Shown here piece after piece: positions 56,679 to 64,000 of a stretch of DNA of 64,000 nt (positions within the stretch are counted from its first letter, which is position 1; every line of letters begins with the position of its first letter). A program made the position numbers and the translations under genes. The notes beneath the pieces are model-generated. The model made no database searches. It was not told the DNA's origin and saw nothing but the letters and a program-made list of their open reading frames with translations. The stretch comes from a virus (Duplodnaviria; Caudoviricetes): positions 32,001-96,000 of the IMG/VR virus record IMGVR_UViG_3300021255_003843; one strand, given 5' to 3'.

Positions 56679-57134
56679 ATGCTGAGATTTGTCAAAGGTG
56701 ATTTGCTTGAAGCAAAAGAAGATTTCATCTGCCATCAGGTCAACTGCATGAGCGCAATGGGCTCAGGCATTGCTAACCAGATCGCGGACAAATGGCCTCA
56801 AGTAAAAACACTGTATTTATCAAAATGCCAGATGTTTGATGACAGAAGACTTCTGTTGGGCAAAGTTCAGTCTATAAAAATCGATGAACATCAATACGTA
56901 CTGAATATTTTCAGCCAGTATACTTATGGCAGCGACAAAAATACGGTCTATACAAACTATCCAGCTTTGCAGAAAGCGTTGTATCTGGCTCGTTTGCCTG
57001 ATAAAAGCTATGCTTTTCCGTACCACTTTGGATGCGGCTTAGCGAACGGCGACTGGACAACTGTTCGTTCGCTAATTGAGAAAATACTGGCCTATGACCA
57101 CGAAGTTGTTATTTACAAGAGGTACGCCACATGA
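56679..57134 (+). CDS. Macrodomain protein (Poa1p/TARG1-like ADP-ribose hydrolase family)
   Basis: KGDLL...ICHQVNC...MGSGIA..I...P...N.FSQ...T.Y...FP..FGCGLANGDW. Confidence 0.88.
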   Translation: MLRFVKGDLLEAKEDFICHQVNCMSAMGSGIANQIADKWPQVKTLYLSKCQMFDDRRLLLGKVQSIKIDEHQYVLNIFSQYTYGSDKNTVYTNYPALQKALYLARLPDKSYAFPYHFGCGLANGDWTTVRSLIEKILAYDHEVVIYKRYAT

Positions 57135-57400
57135 AAGGAAACGCTAAGCTATACAAACCAGGCGACGAAGTGTTCGTCTCCGACGATATTATGTATATGA
57201 ATACCAGTGACGGCGTAGGCATTGCAGAAGCGATGAAAACAATGGCCGGCCAACGTCTGACAATCAAAGCTATTTCCGATGGATATCCGAAGTGTGGCTT
57301 GTGTTATATCGTAAAAGAAAATACTTTCTTATGGCAGGATGAAATGTTGGAGCCCATTAGCAACATTGACATGACCGCCATGGACAGCCTGCTTTTATGA
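57131..57400 (+). CDS. SH3/KOW-like paralog 6
   Basis: YKPGDEVFV...MAG..LTI...WQDEMLEP...DSLLL. Confidence 0.8.
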   Translation: MKGNAKLYKPGDEVFVSDDIMYMNTSDGVGIAEAMKTMAGQRLTIKAISDGYPKCGLCYIVKENTFLWQDEMLEPISNIDMTAMDSLLL

Positions 57401-57410
57401 GGTAATAACT

Positions 57411-57692
57411 ATGTTTCAAGAAGGAGATCTCGTCGTAGCGAAAAACCCGGCAAGAATGCGAGAAACATATAAAGATTGGGCCAAACGATACCCGGATGAA
57501 CGCATCAAGTATGAACTCGGGCTGAAATTTGCTGACGGTGCGCCTCTTGAAATTATCAGGATGAGAGGAGCCACCGGCGTAGTTCTCGGCCCAGTTGGTT
57601 CGTCATGCACAGACAACGACAAAACGCTCTGGCTCAACTCAGGCGATCTTGCGCTTTGCGACGACATGCAGCCTGTGTCTGATTTATTGTGA
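57411..57692 (+). CDS. SH3/KOW-like paralog 7
   Basis: FQEGDLVVAK...VSDLL. Confidence 0.8.
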   Translation: MFQEGDLVVAKNPARMRETYKDWAKRYPDERIKYELGLKFADGAPLEIIRMRGATGVVLGPVGSSCTDNDKTLWLNSGDLALCDDMQPVSDLL

Positions 57693-57699
57693 GGTAGCT

Positions 57700-57909
57700 A
57701 TGTTTCGAGTAGGCGATATAGCAATAGCCAATGAACGCGCCAAAGGCGTTTATTCAATAACCAAGCCAGGCTGGATCGGCACAGTTATCAGGGTTTATCC
57801 TGGTTTCATTACAGTAGCCGGAAAAGAAGGCAATTTCACTGTATGTTCGGAACACTTCGATCTTTATAAGGATCCTCTTGATATCAAAGACATCTCGCGG
57901 TTGATATGA
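57700..57909 (+). CDS. SH3/KOW-like paralog 8
   Basis: FRVGDIAIAN..A...Y.IT..GW.G.V...HFDLY...SRLI. Confidence 0.8.
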   Translation: MFRVGDIAIANERAKGVYSITKPGWIGTVIRVYPGFITVAGKEGNFTVCSEHFDLYKDPLDIKDISRLI

Positions 57910-57917
57910 CCGCATAT

Positions 57918-57990
57918 GGCCTCTTAGCTCAGCCGGTAGAGCAGCTGACTGTTAATCAGCCGGTCGCGCGTTCAAATCGCGCAGAGGCCT
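57918..57990 (+). tRNA. tRNA-Asn(GUU)
   Basis: Acceptor GGCCTCT/AGAGGCC, D arm GCTC/GAGC, anticodon arm GCTGA-CT GTT AA-TCAGC, T loop TTCAAAT; no encoded CCA. Confidence 0.92.
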
Positions 57991-58162
57991 CGTCGGGACG
58001 ATCTGCCGGAAAATGGCGCAGATCACGCGCAACGCTGTTGGAACAGAAGGCTTGGGTTGCGCAACTTGTCAGCAAAAGAAATATCTATAGTTTTTAGCCA
58101 TTTCCATGCCTTGCTTACAGCTGACAGCCCTGCCGCTGGGGTCATAATACAGCGGATTTTAT

Positions 58163-58355
58163 GGAGACTTAGCTCAACTGGGAGAGCGCCAGCGTTGCTC
58201 AGCGTAGGTCAGATGTATAGTCAGGAACTGACCAAAGCGTTTCGGCTCGGCAATATAACTCACCCCGTGATATTAAACGTTGCCATATTTTGTTGAGGAC
58301 AGAATAAGCGGATGCACGCAAGAGGTCGGCGATTCGAACCCGCCAGTCTCCACCA
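58163..58355 (+). ncRNA. tRNA-Ala(UGC)-derived RNA with 117-nt structured insertion at the anticodon
   Basis: Acceptor GGAGACT/AGTCTCC-ACCA, D arm and T loop intact; removing 58199..58315 gives exactly 76 nt with a TGC anticodon. Confidence 0.8.
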
Positions 58356-58454
58356 GGTGCTGCCTTACAGGGGGCAGTATGCCGGAGTCATGACCGGCAC
58401 TTCTGTACGTCGTTTTGGCACCGGTTTGGGCGCTATAATCTAACTGGTGCACGT

Positions 58455-58528
58455 GGGGATTTAGCTCATCAGGTCAGAGCAGCGCTCTTATAAAGCGCAG
58501 GTGCATGGTTCAAGTCCATGAATCCCTA
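58455..58528 (+). tRNA. tRNA-Ile(UAU)
   Basis: GGGGATT/AATCCCT acceptor, GCGCT-CT TAT AA-AGCGC anticodon arm, CATGG-TTCAAGT-CCATG T arm, A73. Confidence 0.9.
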
Positions 58529-58601
58529 TTTGCCCGTGACCATGGAAACACGGGCAAGACGCATCGCCTCTTTAAAATATAGCCGGCGTGTCCGGCTATA
58601 T

Positions 58602-58673
58602 AGGGGAGTAGCCAAACGGAAAGGCACGGGACTTTGACTCCCGCATGTGAAGGTTCAACTCCTTCCTCCCCTG
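58602..58673 (+). tRNA. tRNA-Gln(UUG)
   Basis: AGGGGAG/CTCCCCT acceptor, CGGGA-CT TTG AC-TCCCG, GAAGG-TTCAACT-CCTTC, G73. Confidence 0.92.
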
Positions 58674-58694
58674 CTACGAAATCAAGGAGCTTAT

Positions 58695-58943
58695 ATGGCG
58701 TGTAAATTCAAACCCGGCGACGTGATCGTCGGCAACGATCTCGCTGACGAACGTTACTTTATCACTAACAAAGGCTGGATCGGTCAGGTCATTTCTGTAA
58801 GCCGGGACTGCTTTAGCGCAAAAACGCTTTACAAAAGCGGCAAGCTTGGCACACTTTTTCCTGCCCTTGGTTACGAATACTTTAACGTGCTCGAACCAGA
58901 ATTCGACGCCAAGCATATTAAACAGATGGCAATGATATTATAG
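58695..58943 (+). CDS. SH3/KOW-like paralog 9
   Basis: FKPGDVIVGN..A...Y.IT.KGWIG.V...YF...AMIL. Confidence 0.8.
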   Translation: MACKFKPGDVIVGNDLADERYFITNKGWIGQVISVSRDCFSAKTLYKSGKLGTLFPALGYEYFNVLEPEFDAKHIKQMAMIL

Positions 58944-58953
58944 GAGCGACCGT

Positions 58954-59196
58954 ATGCTGTCACAAACAAAATTTCAGATAGGCGATTATGTGATCGGCAC
59001 AAAGGAAGCTACCGCGCACTATGCGATCACAAAAGAGGGCTGGACCGGTCAGATAACGGAAATACGGAAATATACTATCATGGTGTACGGCAAAGACAAC
59101 TGTGACCGTGACAGATGGTTCGAAGTAGAGCCTAAATATTTTGAATCATGTGATTCGCAAAATTTCAATCAGAACGAGTTTCAGCAGATATTGTAG
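58954..59196 (+). CDS. SH3/KOW-like paralog 10
   Basis: FQIGDYVIGT..A...Y.IT..GW.G.I...YFE...QQIL. Confidence 0.8.
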   Translation: MLSQTKFQIGDYVIGTKEATAHYAITKEGWTGQITEIRKYTIMVYGKDNCDRDRWFEVEPKYFESCDSQNFNQNEFQQIL

Positions 59197-59205
59197 GGAG
59201 AAACC

Positions 59206-59442
59206 ATGGATCGCAACACTCGATATAAAGTAGGCGACATCGTGCGGTGCTATCGGAAGTTTATTGATGTTCCGGAAGAAACGCTGTTCGAAATTGTCCA
59301 AGTAAACGCCTATTCTTATTATACTACATATCTCATCACGCCGGCCACGATGGATGGCAAGCGTTATTATGTTCGCGCGGAAAGTATTCGCAAGGCGAGC
59401 GTGAACGATTTTGACAAGCGGAAAATTAAAACTCTGCTGTAA
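59206..59442 (+). CDS. SH3/KOW-like paralog 11
   Basis: YKVGDIVRC...KTLL. Confidence 0.8.
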   Translation: MDRNTRYKVGDIVRCYRKFIDVPEETLFEIVQVNAYSYYTTYLITPATMDGKRYYVRAESIRKASVNDFDKRKIKTLL

Positions 59443-59451
59443 GGAGACAAC

Positions 59452-59784
59452 ATGTTTAGTCCATTGAATTATTCGCCGGAAGATCTGTTCGATGACGAAA
59501 ACAAAGACGGCCTCGACAGCGAGCGCTTTGTCGTCGGCGACAGTGTATACATTCATCCGGACCTGCGCGAAACCGACAAGGGTGCGTCCGTGACGGAAGA
59601 TATGCTCAACTATGCCGGTTCGCTTGCCAGAATCGTGAGAGTGCTGGGCAACTCGTATAAGCTCGATGTTGATGATGCAGACTGGGTCTGGGATGATTAC
59701 TGTCTTCTGAGTCAGAATGAGTTCGCGCAATATATTACTGGCGTTGCCAAGGTAGAAATCAAACGGCTGGAGGGCTTGATATGA
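59452..59784 (+). CDS. SH3/KOW-like paralog 12
   Basis: FVVGDSVYIHPDL...M..YAG...Y.LD....W.DYCL...EGLI. Confidence 0.8.
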   Translation: MFSPLNYSPEDLFDDENKDGLDSERFVVGDSVYIHPDLRETDKGASVTEDMLNYAGSLARIVRVLGNSYKLDVDDADWVWDDYCLLSQNEFAQYITGVAKVEIKRLEGLI

Positions 59785-60086
59785 GCTACGATATCTTCGA
59801 CATTCACAACGAAGAGGGCATATGCGCCAAATTGTTCGATGTTGGTGATAAAGTAATCATCCGTTCTGACATCAGACCGACCAATAAACACCCGACGATC
59901 ACATCGCAAATGGCGGCCTTGGCAGGCAAAGAAGGTACCGTTGTCCGTAAAAACGGTGACGCTTCTTATCTTCTTGATATTTCAGGAGGCGAATACGGCT
60001 ACGTCTGGTGCGATTACTGTTTCGAGCCTCCGGACACAGGCGCTGCTAATTCACAAATAACCGAGTCTATGCCGGTTCTGCTGTAA
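59781..60086 (+). CDS. SH3/KOW-like paralog 13
   Basis: FDVGDKVIIRSDI...M..LAG...Y.LD...W.DYCFEP...PVLL. Confidence 0.8.
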   Translation: MSYDIFDIHNEEGICAKLFDVGDKVIIRSDIRPTNKHPTITSQMAALAGKEGTVVRKNGDASYLLDISGGEYGYVWCDYCFEPPDTGAANSQITESMPVLL

Positions 60087-60096
60087 TTTTAACGCT

Positions 60097-60132
60097 ATAA
60101 ACAGCCCGCTCATTAAAAGCGGGCTGTTTATA
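60097..60132 (+). terminator. Terminator after paralog array
   Basis: TATAAACAGCCCGCT-CATTAAA-AGCGGGCTGTTTATA. Confidence 0.7.
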
Positions 60133-60287
60133 TAGAACACCTCGGAAAGGAGGGAGTATATGGTTCGGGTGAGATCGCCCAGCGCATATTCATAAAACCT
60201 TTGACCCAGTTCCATATCTTGTTTGCAGATGCAAACACCAATAAAACCCAATTTAAAACAAATTTCAAAACAAAAAGGAGAAACACT

Positions 60288-60893
60288 ATGATTTCTATCA
60301 CCCTGCTCACCAATGCTGGCCGTCAGACTACTCCCGTGTCCGAAGATACCTCTATCCGCGAAGTGCTGGATTCCAAGCACATCAACTATGCCGCCTCCGT
60401 CGTTCAGCTGGATGGCTGCGCGCTGCGCCCCGGCGACATGGATAAGACCTTCGCCGAAATGGGCATCAAAGACAGCTGCTATCTGACAGCCGTCGTTAAG
60501 GCGGATAATGCTGCCAAGGTCACCGTGGTTGGCGAAGCCGCCGTTGTCACCTCCGCGCTGAAGCTGGCAGACATCAAGACCGCCAAGAAGTATCGCCCGG
60601 AAGCCTTGGAGCTGAAGAAGGACAAGGATGTCATCTTCGCTGTTGACACCACTGATCGTTCCGCCGGCTCCATCAATATCCACGGCGCAACCTTCTCCAA
60701 CGCCACGGACGCTGATGGCTATGCCACCATCACCATGACCGTGGATCGCGGCGAGGATGTTGAGAAGACTCTGCTCGATAAGATCGGCATGGGCCTGCTG
60801 CTGTTGAATCAGGTCGAGGAAGCCTTCGGCGAACAGCTGGCGTCCATCCAGGCTGATCAGGCGAAGATCAAGTCTCTGATCGACATCAAGTAA
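60288..60893 (+). CDS. Ubiquitin-like (beta-grasp) domain (aa 1-75, ending KADNA) fused to a ~126-aa C-terminal domain
   Basis: Ubl-like pattern: I.ITL...TSIREVL...V.LDG..L...DMDKTFAEMGI...CYL..VVK; first gene of the E2/JAB/E1 operon. Confidence 0.75.
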   Translation: MISITLLTNAGRQTTPVSEDTSIREVLDSKHINYAASVVQLDGCALRPGDMDKTFAEMGIKDSCYLTAVVKADNAAKVTVVGEAAVVTSALKLADIKTAKKYRPEALELKKDKDVIFAVDTTDRSAGSINIHGATFSNATDADGYATITMTVDRGEDVEKTLLDKIGMGLLLLNQVEEAFGEQLASIQADQAKIKSLIDIK

Positions 60894-60906
60894 TTCCTGA
60901 CACGAC

Positions 60907-60942
60907 AAGGCGGCGTCCCCATTCAAGGGACGCCGCCTTTTT
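60907..60942 (+). terminator. Intra-operon terminator after Ubl gene
   Basis: AAGGCGGCGTCCC-CATTCAA-GGGACGCCGCC-TTTTT. Confidence 0.8.
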
Positions 60943-60975
60943 CGGAAGCCTCTTAAATGAAAGGACATTATTTCC

Positions 60976-62385
60976 ATGTTCGGAAATACGTTTAATGAAA
61001 TCAAATATTTTGGCGACGCGTTCGCCGAACAACACGAGAAGTTGAGCAGGATCACGCAGCGCGGAAATTATCAGAATGATAAGACGATGCTGGCGTTTGC
61101 ACGAGCCCTTCTATTTAACAGGCTCCCGGAAGGCGAAACCTTCTCCATCAATATCTACCCCATCGACAGCCCGATCTATCAGGACATGATGGACCATCCA
61201 AAGGAGAAGGACGAGCTGCACAATCAGCTGTTCGTTTTCTACAAGGAAGACGATACAATCGACGAAGCGCAGGTCAACGCGTTCTACGCCAAGTATCCTA
61301 CGTTCCATATCATGCAGCAGCATATGGACTTCTTCTCATCGTGCGCAAAAGCCTGGTGCTACAACGATACTGAGAACATTTCCGCCATCCTGTTTCTGCA
61401 GGAAGCGAATGTGCGCAAGATGCACCTGCTGTTCTCCATGCTCTCCGCCTACTTCAAGCCTCTGTGCCCGGTCATGACCGGCTATGAGAAGACAGATTTC
61501 TGCCCGTCCATGACCAAGCGCGCTTCTCAGCCCTTTGAGGAGTGCATGGCTCACCTGGCGCATGAGTATGGCATCGATCAGGAGTATATGGCGTTCATGA
61601 TCCGGAACTACACCCGGAACAACGTACGTGTCGTTATCGATCAGGCTGAACGCACTCTGGCTGAACGGCGGGACACGCTGCAGCGTAATATCGAAGAGTA
61701 CACTAATCTATACCGCGCTTTCAAGCAGGCTTCTGATAACGTTGAACTGCTGAAATCTCGCCCCGTCGAAGAAGATACAGAGCTCGTAGATTTCTTCAAG
61801 GCACATAAGAATATCAGGCTGTTCGACGTCAGCGGCGATATGCTCAAGTTCTATGTACTGGGTACTCTTGAGTGGTTTGATCTTGAATTCTATCATCGCG
61901 CGGCGAGGAACGATAATGCCATCTACCGCATCAACGCGCCACGGGCTTTCTCTGAGCTGGAAGACCGCAAACTGTTGATGGACGCCATCTTCTCCGATGA
62001 TCCGATTTTCAAAATCCGCATGTGCTCATCCTATGGTCTGTCTATCACCGGCGATGTGGACGTCTGGGCTAACTATAACTATCCCGCGGATATACTTAAG
62101 CAGTATATTCCGAATCCGCATATTCAGTATCACCGCTGCCTCGGCGACCATCGTGATCCGATCCGCCGCGCGCTGAGAGACAATAACATGCCGCTCGCCA
62201 TCGAGCAGTGTATCGCCTCCGCTCAGTCCGTCAATATTGCGGAGCGCAGCGTCACCTTCGATCCGTTCATGAAGAACGTATTCAGCTCCACAAACAAGAT
62301 TCTGGTGGATATGAAAGGCAAAGAATATACGCCCGTCGAGGCTCTGAAATATCTGAAAAAGAAAGCGCAGGCTGAGAGCAAATGA
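60976..62385 (+). CDS. Putative prokaryotic E2-like conjugating enzyme with N-terminal domain and coiled coil
   Basis: C-terminal PNPHIQYHRCLG (xPH...CLG, Cys388); operon context. Confidence 0.65.
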   Translation: MFGNTFNEIKYFGDAFAEQHEKLSRITQRGNYQNDKTMLAFARALLFNRLPEGETFSINIYPIDSPIYQDMMDHPKEKDELHNQLFVFYKEDDTIDEAQVNAFYAKYPTFHIMQQHMDFFSSCAKAWCYNDTENISAILFLQEANVRKMHLLFSMLSAYFKPLCPVMTGYEKTDFCPSMTKRASQPFEECMAHLAHEYGIDQEYMAFMIRNYTRNNVRVVIDQAERTLAERRDTLQRNIEEYTNLYRAFKQASDNVELLKSRPVEEDTELVDFFKAHKNIRLFDVSGDMLKFYVLGTLEWFDLEFYHRAARNDNAIYRINAPRAFSELEDRKLLMDAIFSDDPIFKIRMCSSYGLSITGDVDVWANYNYPADILKQYIPNPHIQYHRCLGDHRDPIRRALRDNNMPLAIEQCIASAQSVNIAERSVTFDPFMKNVFSSTNKILVDMKGKEYTPVEALKYLKKKAQAESK

Positions 62386-63230
62386 AAACGATAAAGATCA
62401 CGGAAGCCGATAAGGCCGCCATCAGGGAAGAGTTTGAGAAAACTCTGGCTGATTACCGGCTTCCGAACGGCGAGTTCAAGTTTACAAAATCCTTCGCCGC
62501 CCGCAAAGCGGCGAAGGATGAGCGCATCACGCTCTATTATACGCCGGACGCATATCTGAAGATCACCGCTCTGGTGAACAAGTTCGATACAGAGGTAGGC
62601 TGGCATGGTCTCGTCCGTAAGGTAGACGATAAGACTTACCTGATCTATGACATCCTGGTCTATAAGCAGGAGGTCACCGGCGCAACCGTCAACACGGATC
62701 AGGATGAGTATGTCGAATTCCTGAAGAATCTCACCGACGAGCAGGCCGAGCATATGTTCTATCACGGCCACAGCCATGTCAATATGGGTGTGTTCGCCTC
62801 CTCTGTGGATATGGATCACCGCGCACGCCTGATCCAGTGTGCTGATGAAAACGGTTTCTGGATTTTTCAAATTTGGAACAAACGTAAGGAAGTTTCGACC
62901 GTACTCTATGACCTCGCCAATAATGTTCTGTATGACTCGGATGACATCGATATGACCGTCCTGTTCGCGGACGGCTCCGACGTTACGGAGTTCACTGCGA
63001 ACGCGGATAAGCTCGTCGTAAAAAAAAATACCTTGCCCGCTCAGGTCAAGATCGACAGCAAGTGGTCGGGCGGCTCTTACAATACCGCGCAAAAAGAGCC
63101 CGAAAAGTCCAAAAAGGCAGAAAAAGCTAAGGATAAGAAGAAGTACGAGGACTATGACGACGACCTGATTGACGATGGCACTAAGCCTTATGGCTATGGC
63201 TATGGTTACGGGTATGGCTACAATTACTAA
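62382..63230 (+). CDS. JAB/MPN+ (JAMM) metallopeptidase
   Basis: EVGWHG...HSH-x7-S-x2-D (HSHVNMGVFASSVD); acidic and YG-repeat tail. Confidence 0.9.
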   Translation: MKTIKITEADKAAIREEFEKTLADYRLPNGEFKFTKSFAARKAAKDERITLYYTPDAYLKITALVNKFDTEVGWHGLVRKVDDKTYLIYDILVYKQEVTGATVNTDQDEYVEFLKNLTDEQAEHMFYHGHSHVNMGVFASSVDMDHRARLIQCADENGFWIFQIWNKRKEVSTVLYDLANNVLYDSDDIDMTVLFADGSDVTEFTANADKLVVKKNTLPAQVKIDSKWSGGSYNTAQKEPEKSKKAEKAKDKKKYEDYDDDLIDDGTKPYGYGYGYGYGYNY

Positions 63231-63241
63231 GGAGAGAAGAC

Positions 63242-63913
63242 ATGGATCTTTCTAAATCCTATGAATTCTTCCAGCCTTCCATGTGCGACGGCCGCATCCA
63301 CATCATCGGATGCGGCTCCGTCGGCTCTACAGTGGCGGAACTGCTGGTTCGCTACGGCCTGACCAATATCACGCTCTATGATTTTGATCATGTCGAGGCT
63401 CACAACATCGCTAATCAGATGTTCGATAGTACCGACATCGGCAAGGAAAAGGTCACAGCCGTGGCCGATCATCTGATCGCTATCAATCCGGAGCTGCGGG
63501 ACACTCTGCGCATCGCCGATAAGGGCTATACAAATCAGAAGCTCTCCGGCTATGTATTCCTGTGTGTCGACAATATCGACCTTCGACGCAAGATCGCCGA
63601 GGAAAACAGGAACAATGTATTTATCAAGGCGATGTTCGATTTCAGGACCCGCCTGACCGACGCCCAGCACTACGCTGCGGATTGGTCTGACGAAAAGCAC
63701 AAGGAAGCCTTCATCAATTCTATGCAATTCTCGCACGAGGAGGCGTCCAAGGAGACGCCTATGTCCGCCTGCCATGTCACCCTCAGTGTGGCGGCGACAG
63801 TGCGCCTGATCTGCACCTACGGGGTCGTCAACTTCATTGACTTCCTCAAGAAAGGGACCCTCAAGAAGACCGTACTCATCAACACAGAGCTCTGGGACTT
63901 GATGGGTATCTAA
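63242..63913 (+). CDS. ThiF/E1-like adenylyltransferase
   Basis: IIGCGSVGS, DFDHVEAHNIANQ, GKEKV.A, CVDN...R; candidate catalytic Cys in SACH. Confidence 0.92.
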   Translation: MDLSKSYEFFQPSMCDGRIHIIGCGSVGSTVAELLVRYGLTNITLYDFDHVEAHNIANQMFDSTDIGKEKVTAVADHLIAINPELRDTLRIADKGYTNQKLSGYVFLCVDNIDLRRKIAEENRNNVFIKAMFDFRTRLTDAQHYAADWSDEKHKEAFINSMQFSHEEASKETPMSACHVTLSVAATVRLICTYGVVNFIDFLKKGTLKKTVLINTELWDLMGI

Positions 63914-63930: not shown

Positions 63931-64000
63931 ATGTTTGGATATTTCTACTTCACCAGGCGCGCTATCGCAAAGAAAAGTGGGCAAACAAAGTTCATAAGCC
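63931..64000 (+). CDS. Partial ORF at window edge
   Basis: AGGAGAGG RBS; MFGYFYFTRRAIAKKSGQTKFIS... Confidence 0.45.
   Translation, partial: MFGYFYFTRRAIAKKSGQTKFIS

Follow-up and report, generated by a model that had tools for sequence, protein, structure and literature searches.

The prokaryotic systems known to conjugate ubiquitin-like proteins (Ubls) that have been characterised to date, namely Bil, Bub and CBASS (cyclic oligonucleotide-based anti-phage signalling), all serve bacterial immunity against phages. Here we describe a set of genes of this kind that is carried by a phage. It lies in a stretch of 64,000 nucleotides (the window), bases 32001-96000 of the 105,495-bp IMG/VR virus record IMGVR_UViG_3300021255_003843, in which four consecutive plus-strand genes at window 60288-63913 (here denoted g1 to g4) encode a Ubl fused to a second domain (Cdom), an E2-like protein, a JAB peptidase and a minimal E1, followed by a retron-type reverse transcriptase (RT). 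We consider it probable that they constitute an accessory phage-borne Ubl conjugation module that travels as one unit with the RT. A large group of uncultured gut/rumen phages carries the complete kit as an old and strongly diversified gene set, distinguished by a non-glycine modifier tail, an E2-like protein of no catalogued family and an apparently obligate link to a retron-type RT. The preliminary description of the window had named the same four genes, all of which are present where it had placed them.

The BilABCD operon (10.1101/2023.09.04.556158; PMC11601596) resembles the phage cassette in that Ubl, E2, JAB and E1 are separate genes; neither has an E3, so that the E2 presumably selects the targets, and in both some modifiers carry overhangs that need trimming. 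BilD, however, is a large IAD-AAD-CYS E1 whereas g4 is a single 223-aa ThiF domain, BilA ends in Gly whereas the phage Ubl ends in Asn-Ala, and the phage E2-like protein, at 469 aa, has an extra N-terminal domain and a long helix and is matched by no E2 family model. Unlike Bil, the present cassette is phage-borne and RT-linked. Bub, or 6E (PMC11601596), shares with it a minimal homodimer-type E1, a JAB and an N-terminal Ubl fusion that the JAB cuts. In contrast to the phage cassette, in which C177 of g4 and C388 of g2 are conserved, Bub forms Ser/Tyr oxyesters and has no catalytic cysteines; it has Ubl-E2 and JAB-E1 fusions and a DUF6527 protease and cleaves after Gly, whereas the phage genes are separate and no such protease was seen among the flanking open reading frames (ORFs).

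Type II CBASS (PMC10097602; 10.1101/2022.03.31.486616) supplies, with Cap2 and Cap3, the closest profile matches for g4 and the JAB. Its E1 cysteine lies in the crossover loop, as that of the phage protein may, to judge from the alignment, and a C-terminal Ala can be activated. However, no CD-NTase-like ORF was recognised beside the phage operon, its E1 and E2 are separate with no Cap2-like fusion, its modifier is a real beta-grasp protein, and a P-N-x7-C motif, missing from the E2 domain of Cap2, is retained in its E2-like domain. The tail-assembly proteins TAPI (Ubl) and TAPK (JAB) of lambdoid and T1 phages (PMC1779556) are alike in that a phage Ubl is fused to a C-terminal domain and the JAB is predicted to release it. 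They belong to a tail module with no E1 or E2, whereas the present cassette lies in the early/replication region with full activation machinery. The cassette thus belongs to none of these three bacterial systems (Bil, Bub, CBASS). Literature searches turned up no published account of an E1-E2-JAB-Ubl set of this family borne by a phage, an absence that is no proof.

The carrier is an uncultured gut/rumen phage of ~105 kb. The cassette sits in a virus record that also codes for a large terminase, a portal, a distal tail protein and a 5453-aa ORF, and whose completeness CheckV estimates at 95%; the view that a phage carries this machinery is borne out. The cassette offers a testable system for viral use of ubiquitin-like tagging, and its compact E1/E2/JAB/Ubl set could lend itself to reconstitution in vitro. 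Coordinates are collected in Table 1.

The modifier and its tail

The product of g1 has no meaningful family match in Pfam, NCBIfam, PHROGs or PADLOC. Its start was set at the ATG at 60288, where homologues begin with MI and which AAGGAG precedes by 8 nt. The AlphaFold2 model, built with 27 homologues, has a mean pLDDT (predicted local distance difference test) of 87 and shows two domains with a lower-confidence linker at residues 71-80; within the Ubl, residues 1-70 have a pLDDT of 85-91. Foldseek returned 98 PDB matches at E<=1e-3, among the rows listed essentially all ubiquitin or SUMO, with template modelling (TM) scores by target of 0.56-0.67 for stand-alone ubiquitin/SUMO chains. VIA-align gave Z of 8-9.3, including 8.6 to 8tyz_B, the Ubl chain of a bacterial E1-E2-Ubl complex. 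Together, the model and its matches strongly argue for a ubiquitin/SUMO beta-grasp in residues 1-75, as the preliminary description had proposed for the N-terminus. Cdom is modelled as a beta-sheet followed by a 40-residue C-terminal helix. Its fold was not placed: the Ubl domain filled the match lists, and Atlas look-alikes all had TM<0.5.

We gathered 44 related IMG/VR loci via g2, which are the basis of the gene-order and Ubl-tail counts. Homologues of g1 are either fused (~201 aa) or are ~132-aa forms that start exactly at the Ubl/Cdom junction. A stand-alone Ubl gene of ~75 aa is present in 36 of the 44 loci, just 3' of a separate Cdom gene (~130 aa), and the Ubl is fused N-terminal to Cdom in this window and in L005, L006, L007, L009 and L045. 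At the fusion junction KADNA is followed by AK, that is, the Ubl tail is joined to Cdom minus its initiator Met. In L045 (3333-5745) the E2-like gene is preceded by a tandem in which one gene is Cdom-like, two are paralogous Ubl-Cdom fusions and one encodes a Ubl alone.

Twenty of the 36 stand-alone Ubls end exactly in ...KADNA. Other tails carry one to three extra residues (A, R, AA, NA or TSK), have S-A for N-A (two) or stop at K-A-D (one), and GG is found at the tail position in a single stand-alone Ubl, there as G-G followed by I-H. From the KADNA endings, the overhangs and the GG and SA variants we conclude that Asn-Ala stands in for Gly-Gly; judged from the sequences, this conserved, small-residue, terminal tail looks functionally analogous. 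Overhangs of 2-9 aa are known at the C-terminus of BilA homologues (10.1101/2023.09.04.556158), and Cap2, which is E1-like, activates a substrate ending in Ala, the E. cloacae cGAS tail of the crystal construct being ...GRFA (10.1101/2022.03.31.486616). By analogy with BubAB, a Ubl-fusion precursor that BubCD cleaves (PMC11601596), the fusion in this window may be a precursor, which should then need cleavage by the JAB. Alternatively, Cdom may be a partner or target of the Ubl. Whichever of the two holds, the fusion is Rosetta-stone evidence for joint function.

An A-rich leader and a terminator of its own had been ascribed to the Ubl gene, and both were found. The terminator hairpin was seen by direct reading, a simple terminator scan having missed it. 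No convincing sigma-70 promoter was found for g1, nor is it preceded by the hairpin-promoter motif of other parts of this genome. The leader with its strong ribosome-binding site and the separate terminator would fit a modifier made in excess over the enzymes, as the preliminary description had supposed.

The E1, the JAB peptidase and the E2-like protein

The g4 protein matched Pfam ThiF (PF00899) with 79 bits against a cut-off of 28.1 (4e-22). Its best matches are the E1 part of Cap2 (PADLOC E1-E2, 5e-20), ThiF, MoeB and UBA5 (PDB); only the Rossmann part matches the Cap2 models. The nucleotide-binding and Mg motifs GCGxxGST, DFDxV..N..NQ and CVDxIxxRR are conserved across 41 homologues, and C177, within S-A-C, in at least 95% of them. 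No rhodanese domain and, as had been noticed before, no CxxC pair is present in g4. By alignment to MoeB/UBA5-type sequences, C177 would be the last part of the crossover loop, the site of the catalytic cysteine in UBA5, ATG7 and Cap2 (PMC11601596; 10.1101/2022.03.31.486616).

E1 matches to ThiF, MoeB and MccB score about like those to UBA5 and Cap2, and the Ubl tail holds a conserved Asn. The cassette could on these grounds serve a chemistry other than protein tagging, with the Ubl as a ThiS/MoaD-like sulfur carrier or the E1 making an MccB-like peptide-nucleotide on the C-terminal Asn. We hold this to be highly improbable: among the flanking ORFs we noticed none for thiamine, molybdenum cofactor or sulfur transfer, an absence that the preliminary description had also reported, the E1 is without the rhodanese domain or CxxC pair, and both a JAB and an E2-like protein with a Cys are conserved alongside it. 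Since Gly or Ser replaces the tail Asn in some relatives, a reaction of the MccB type on this residue was set aside.

In g3, E71 and H130-x-H132-x7-S140-x2-D143 are invariant in 36 homologues, which leaves the JAMM zinc site intact, as first described. Profile matches are weak but consistent (PADLOC JAB, E 0.004; Rpn11, E 0.04). Prok-JAB is the top family for the homologues, yet it matches only 5 of the 36 members (best E 0.0027), and a profile search of g3 against the PDB was empty. The invariant residues and these matches point to a JAB peptidase. Towards its C-terminus (window 63080-63230) the protein is first rich in Lys and Glu, then acidic, and closes with a (Gly-Tyr)5 run that has N-Y at its end; the Gly-Tyr repeat is not kept in relatives, whereas an acidic Y-D-D patch is.

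The g2 protein found nothing meaningful in Pfam (no match at E<=1), NCBIfam, PHROGs or PADLOC. A profile search gave a family of 2282 cluster representatives at E<=1e-3, of which 1114 reached E<=1e-30 (clusters at 50% identity). Among GenBank phages there is a single distant relative, MT835544.1, and 185,579 species genomes hold four loci only, all in gut/rumen metagenome-assembled genomes, labelled Congzhengia, Clostridia bacterium and Lachnospiraceae (three Clostridia-type) and Alistipes.

The AlphaFold2 model of g2 (pLDDT 91.4) consists of an alpha/beta N-terminal domain, a 60-residue helix and a C-terminal domain. The latter is built as helix, two strands, helical insert, two strands, loop with short helices and three helices, a predicted order that fits the UBC plan. 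Foldseek with the whole model found no match in the PDB and one uncharacterised phage protein only in BFVD. A Foldseek-independent search with the whole-protein model matched, over residues 265-446, a SEA-complex subunit at Z 6.9, Knl1 at 6.7 and 6.2 and Ltn1 at 6.2. The best non-coiled-coil matches are five entries (Knl1 twice, LTN1/Ltn1 twice and the SEA-complex subunit) at Z 6.0-6.9 with 90-119 residues aligned, and a further structure search matched the RWD domain of RWDD3 (2ebk) at Z 4.5. We take the matched regions of Knl1, LTN1/Ltn1 and the SEA-complex subunit to be RWD domains, only 2ebk being so titled. RWD belongs to the UBC superfold.

An xPH...CLG motif had been pointed out in g2. 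The motif is real, and is better read as P379-N380-x7-C388-L389. Across 162 family representatives, whose median identity to g2 is 25%, N380, H382, C388 and G390 are 100% invariant and P379 is kept in 93%, giving a family motif [I/V/M]-P-N-x7-C-[L/I/M]. Canonical E2s have H-P-N-x7-C-L, with HPN ~8 residues before the Cys between beta4 and alpha2 (10.1101/2022.03.31.486616); the spacing of 8 from N380 to C388 is the same. In the model the motif comes after the strands that we equate with beta3-beta4 and shares residues with a short helix ahead of the alpha2 equivalent, which would place it roughly at the E2 cysteine site. A papain-like Cys/His/Asn triad in g2 was set aside; the three residues fall within nine positions, as in an E2 active-site loop.

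Searches for a relative of g2 among known E2s gave little. PF14460 has no match in the genome, and profile searches of the C-terminal and N-terminal domains against PDB sequences returned chance-level matches only (e.g. CopM) and no E2. A look at 301 genomes from the class to which one of the four g2-bearing genomes belongs yielded 3 Prok-E2_D proteins, too few for a profile, and hhalign of the C-terminal domain against a Prok-E2_D protein gave a probability of 0.05. A homologue search with the C-terminal domain profile found family fragments only and no stand-alone or annotated E2. A protein-language search ranked Prok-E2_D clusters nearest among annotated ones (score 0.81; one with an alpha-hel2 domain), a lead only.

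Its best structure matches being non-catalytic RWD domains (Z 4.5-6.9), g2 might be an RWD-like pseudo-E2 or adaptor, or an unrelated Cys/His enzyme, with the E1 alone activating or directly transferring the Ubl. Cap2 conjugates in vitro with one of its two cysteines missing (10.1101/2022.03.31.486616), which would suit such a scheme. We find it improbable, because complete invariance of N380, H382, C388 and G390 among so divergent sequences argues for catalysis, and because both the P-N-x7-C-L spacing and the modelled position of the motif agree with those of E2s. That g2 is a catalytic E2-like protein is, in our estimate, quite likely, the sequence being a stronger argument than the structure matches. 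The gene identities first proposed all stand, with strong evidence for the Ubl and the E1, good evidence for the JAB and moderate evidence for the E2.

In the N-terminal domain of g2 (window 60976-61575), M1-F2, D35, R49 and H150 are 95-99% conserved in the 162 members, and the fold has a weak MogA/MoaB-like alpha/beta similarity (Z about 4). That D35, R49 and H150 are conserved to about 99% would fit a further functional site in this domain, which might bind the target or the E1.

Linkage to a retron-type reverse transcriptase

The RT matched PADLOC RT_II-A at 2.9e-44 over 267 of 304 profile positions, and also Pfam RVT_1. It resembles the RT of retrons, which combine an RT, a non-coding RNA (ncRNA) and an effector, in that it matches retron RT profiles over its own full length and a strongly structured spacer of ~200 nt follows it. 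This spacer (L002:7110-7330, before the RNA polymerase gene) folds with -82.6 kcal/mol (z -5.4) and contains a long, nearly perfect hairpin, while Rfam gave no match. It might represent either a terminator or an ncRNA of the retron type. We know of no described retron type with Ubl, E1, E2 or JAB partners. Likewise, we found no retron-type RT linked to Ubl-conjugation enzymes described in the literature, and the cassette would be a new partner class for such RTs.

A neighbourhood survey in related phages, which the preliminary description had proposed, showed the order Cdom/Ubl, g2, JAB, E1, RT in 44 of 44 loci, as far as each contig reaches, with the RT 3' of the cassette in all 43 loci whose contigs extend that far. 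Since records were not to be selected by the cassette itself, a second sample of relatives was gathered via the terminase, and its 22 records of at least 90 kb were searched for E1 and RT. Both genes are present in 16 and both absent in 6; they never occur apart. Of the 14 records whose completeness is 90% or more, 10 carry both genes and 4 carry neither. The matched presence and absence of E1 and RT indicate an accessory unit, acquired or lost in its entirety, and its absence from some close relatives indicates that it is dispensable. Neither this grouping with the RT into one dispensable accessory unit nor the Asn-Ala tail with its fused partner domain had been part of the preliminary description.

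The spacing between E1 and RT varies, unrelated genes stand between them in many loci, and all records come from one phage lineage. The RT might, then, be a mere syntenic neighbour in a shared variable region, functionally unconnected to the cassette. We regard this as unlikely, given the perfect agreement of presence and absence in the 22 relatives, the adjacent RT in every locus that reaches so far, and an RNase H1-like gene inside the cassette in six loci.

Variation within the unit was seen at several points. A 274-aa family gene is inserted between E1 and RT in 11 loci. The RNase H1-like gene lies between the Ubl and E2-like genes (L018:5046-5696, L019:5037-5681, L020:5046-5696), and its product has an N-terminal hybrid-binding-type motif, of note beside a linked RT. 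An acidic, Cys-containing protein of ~165 aa is encoded between JAB and E1 in 18 of the 44 loci (e.g. L008:7797-8366 and L013:8325-8834) and is absent in the window; it may be an extra cassette component.

In two complete relatives without the unit, the slot 5' of the YonO-like RNA polymerase is filled by Amidoligase_2 (PF12224), which was found in none of the 16 cassette-carrying relatives. Amidoligase_2 enzymes are predicted ATP-dependent carboxylate-amine ligases. The two genomes hint that one ligation system has been replaced by another in this slot.

Proposed role and genomic surroundings

The identities of the components and the precedents above suggest the following course. An abundantly expressed Ubl-Cdom precursor would be cut by the JAB after ...KADNA; where the Ubl gene is separate, the JAB would trim a short overhang. 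The minimal, presumably homodimeric E1 would adenylate the C-terminal Ala of the Ubl, take the Ubl onto Cys177 as a thioester and hand it to Cys388 of the E2-like protein, whose N-terminal domain and long helix would select the target in place of an E3. The Ubl would then be joined to a target amine, and the JAB could also reverse the tag. The foremost candidate for a partner or target is Cdom, always adjacent and sometimes fused. The RT would most likely sense or regulate, probably together with an RNA or multicopy single-stranded DNA (msDNA), as in retron defence systems.

Several points weigh against reading the genes as such a module. The Ubl tail is not the Gly(-Gly) expected of a modifier. 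The E2 fold of g2 rests on middling Z values from a whole-protein model, the His of HPN is absent with I/V/M in its place, and Pfam, PDB sequences and hhalign yield no sequence link from g2 to any E2 family. The crossover-loop placement of C177 comes from sequence alignment, not structure. The relatives share ancestry, so that the conserved gene order and the 16/0/0/6 table of E1 and RT overstate independence.

We read the role of the unit as a conflict function, virus against host or virus against virus, and lean slightly towards one that protects the lysogen or infected cell from rival phages. To our knowledge, all E1-E2-JAB-Ubl systems and all retrons that have been characterised serve in defence. 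Defence is favoured because the characterised relatives (Bil, Bub, CBASS and retrons) all serve it, and because the distribution is patchy and the slot variable. The same biochemistry could have the opposite role, early tagging that disables host or defence proteins, or removal by the JAB of tags set by host Bil- or CBASS-type systems. Such an offensive role is favoured by the position of the unit among early/replication genes, on their strand and directly 5' of genes for RNA polymerase, single-strand annealing protein (SSAP) and ORFs read as single-stranded DNA-binding protein (SSB) and primase, by a g2 family that is deeply diversified and, but for the four genome loci, nearly viral-only, and by the want of any system-level match in PADLOC. 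The defensive nature of all characterised relatives speaks against it, as does the absence of the unit from 4 of 14 complete relatives, so that it is not required for growth; we judge counter-defence or takeover rather unlikely, if a serious contender.

More tentatively, and with some doubt, cassette and RT may form a new retron-like system with the Ubl conjugation machine as its effector arm. The RT product, msDNA or RNA, would gate the Ubl or itself receive it, and Cdom would be the sensor or first target. If so, Amidoligase_2 in the slot of sister phages would suggest that both kinds of phage need covalent tagging.

Table 1. Features of the cassette region in the window, with features of related loci (L) where indicated
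Feature	Position	Strand	Basis
Hairpin, terminator-like, perfect 10-bp, closing the upstream small-ORF array	60100..60131	+	read from sequence
A-rich leader with AAGGAG ribosome-binding site, 5' of g1	60231..60287	+	read from sequence
g1, 201 aa	60288-60893	+	ORF list
Ubl domain, g1 residues 1-75, predicted beta-grasp, tail ...VVKADNA	60288..60512	+	AlphaFold2 model, structure matches, stand-alone homologues
Cdom, g1 residues 76-201 (126 aa)	60513..60893	+	AlphaFold2 model, homologues
Intrinsic terminator after g1: perfect 13-bp stem, 7-nt loop, T5	60907..60943	+	read from sequence
g2, 469 aa: alpha/beta N-terminal domain (~1-200), long helix (200-261), UBC/RWD-like C-terminal domain (265-469)	60976..62385	+	AlphaFold2 model, RWD matches
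Predicted E2 active-site loop P379-N380-P-H382-x5-C388-L-G390	62110..62145	+	invariance, spacing
g3, 282 aa, JAB/JAMM metallopeptidase with low-complexity C-terminal tail	62382..63230	+	invariant motif, weak profile matches
g4, 223 aa, minimal E1 (adenylation domain only), GCGSVGS nucleotide loop	63242..63913	+	ThiF match, conservation
Start of retron-type RT, 396 aa, running past the window end; full gene L002:5932-7122	63931..64000	+	PADLOC RT_II-A, Pfam RVT_1
Amidoligase_2 slots: one or two PF12224 proteins plus 326/378-aa and 140/157-aa proteins of no known function	L080:5373-8815 (G312), L081:6121-7584 (G306)

The cassette is preceded by an array of small ORFs and three tRNA genes. On its 3' side the RT is followed by a 947-aa YonO/QDE-1-like RNA polymerase and a Sak-type SSAP; the ORFs beyond it are read as SSB and primase-helicase from the ORF listing, without a family scan. 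In the relatives, the terminase segments (tblastn-defined) of L065, L067, L068, L072 and L073 have 1-3 internal stops where others are open, and single TGA or TAG stops were likewise flagged within RNA polymerase matches. Stop-codon recoding, introns, a shift of frame within the match or faulty assembly could account for these. The upstream array (window 57131-60086) comprises eight small paralogous ORFs of 78-110 aa with F/Y-x-x-G-D-x-V near the N-terminus, all of which terminate in a di-aliphatic peptide (LL, IL or LI). In the cassette-less relative G306, two small ORFs (L081:8370-9050) have another common ending (LFFRE, LLFRE), indicating that such tagged mini-proteins occur without the Ubl cassette.

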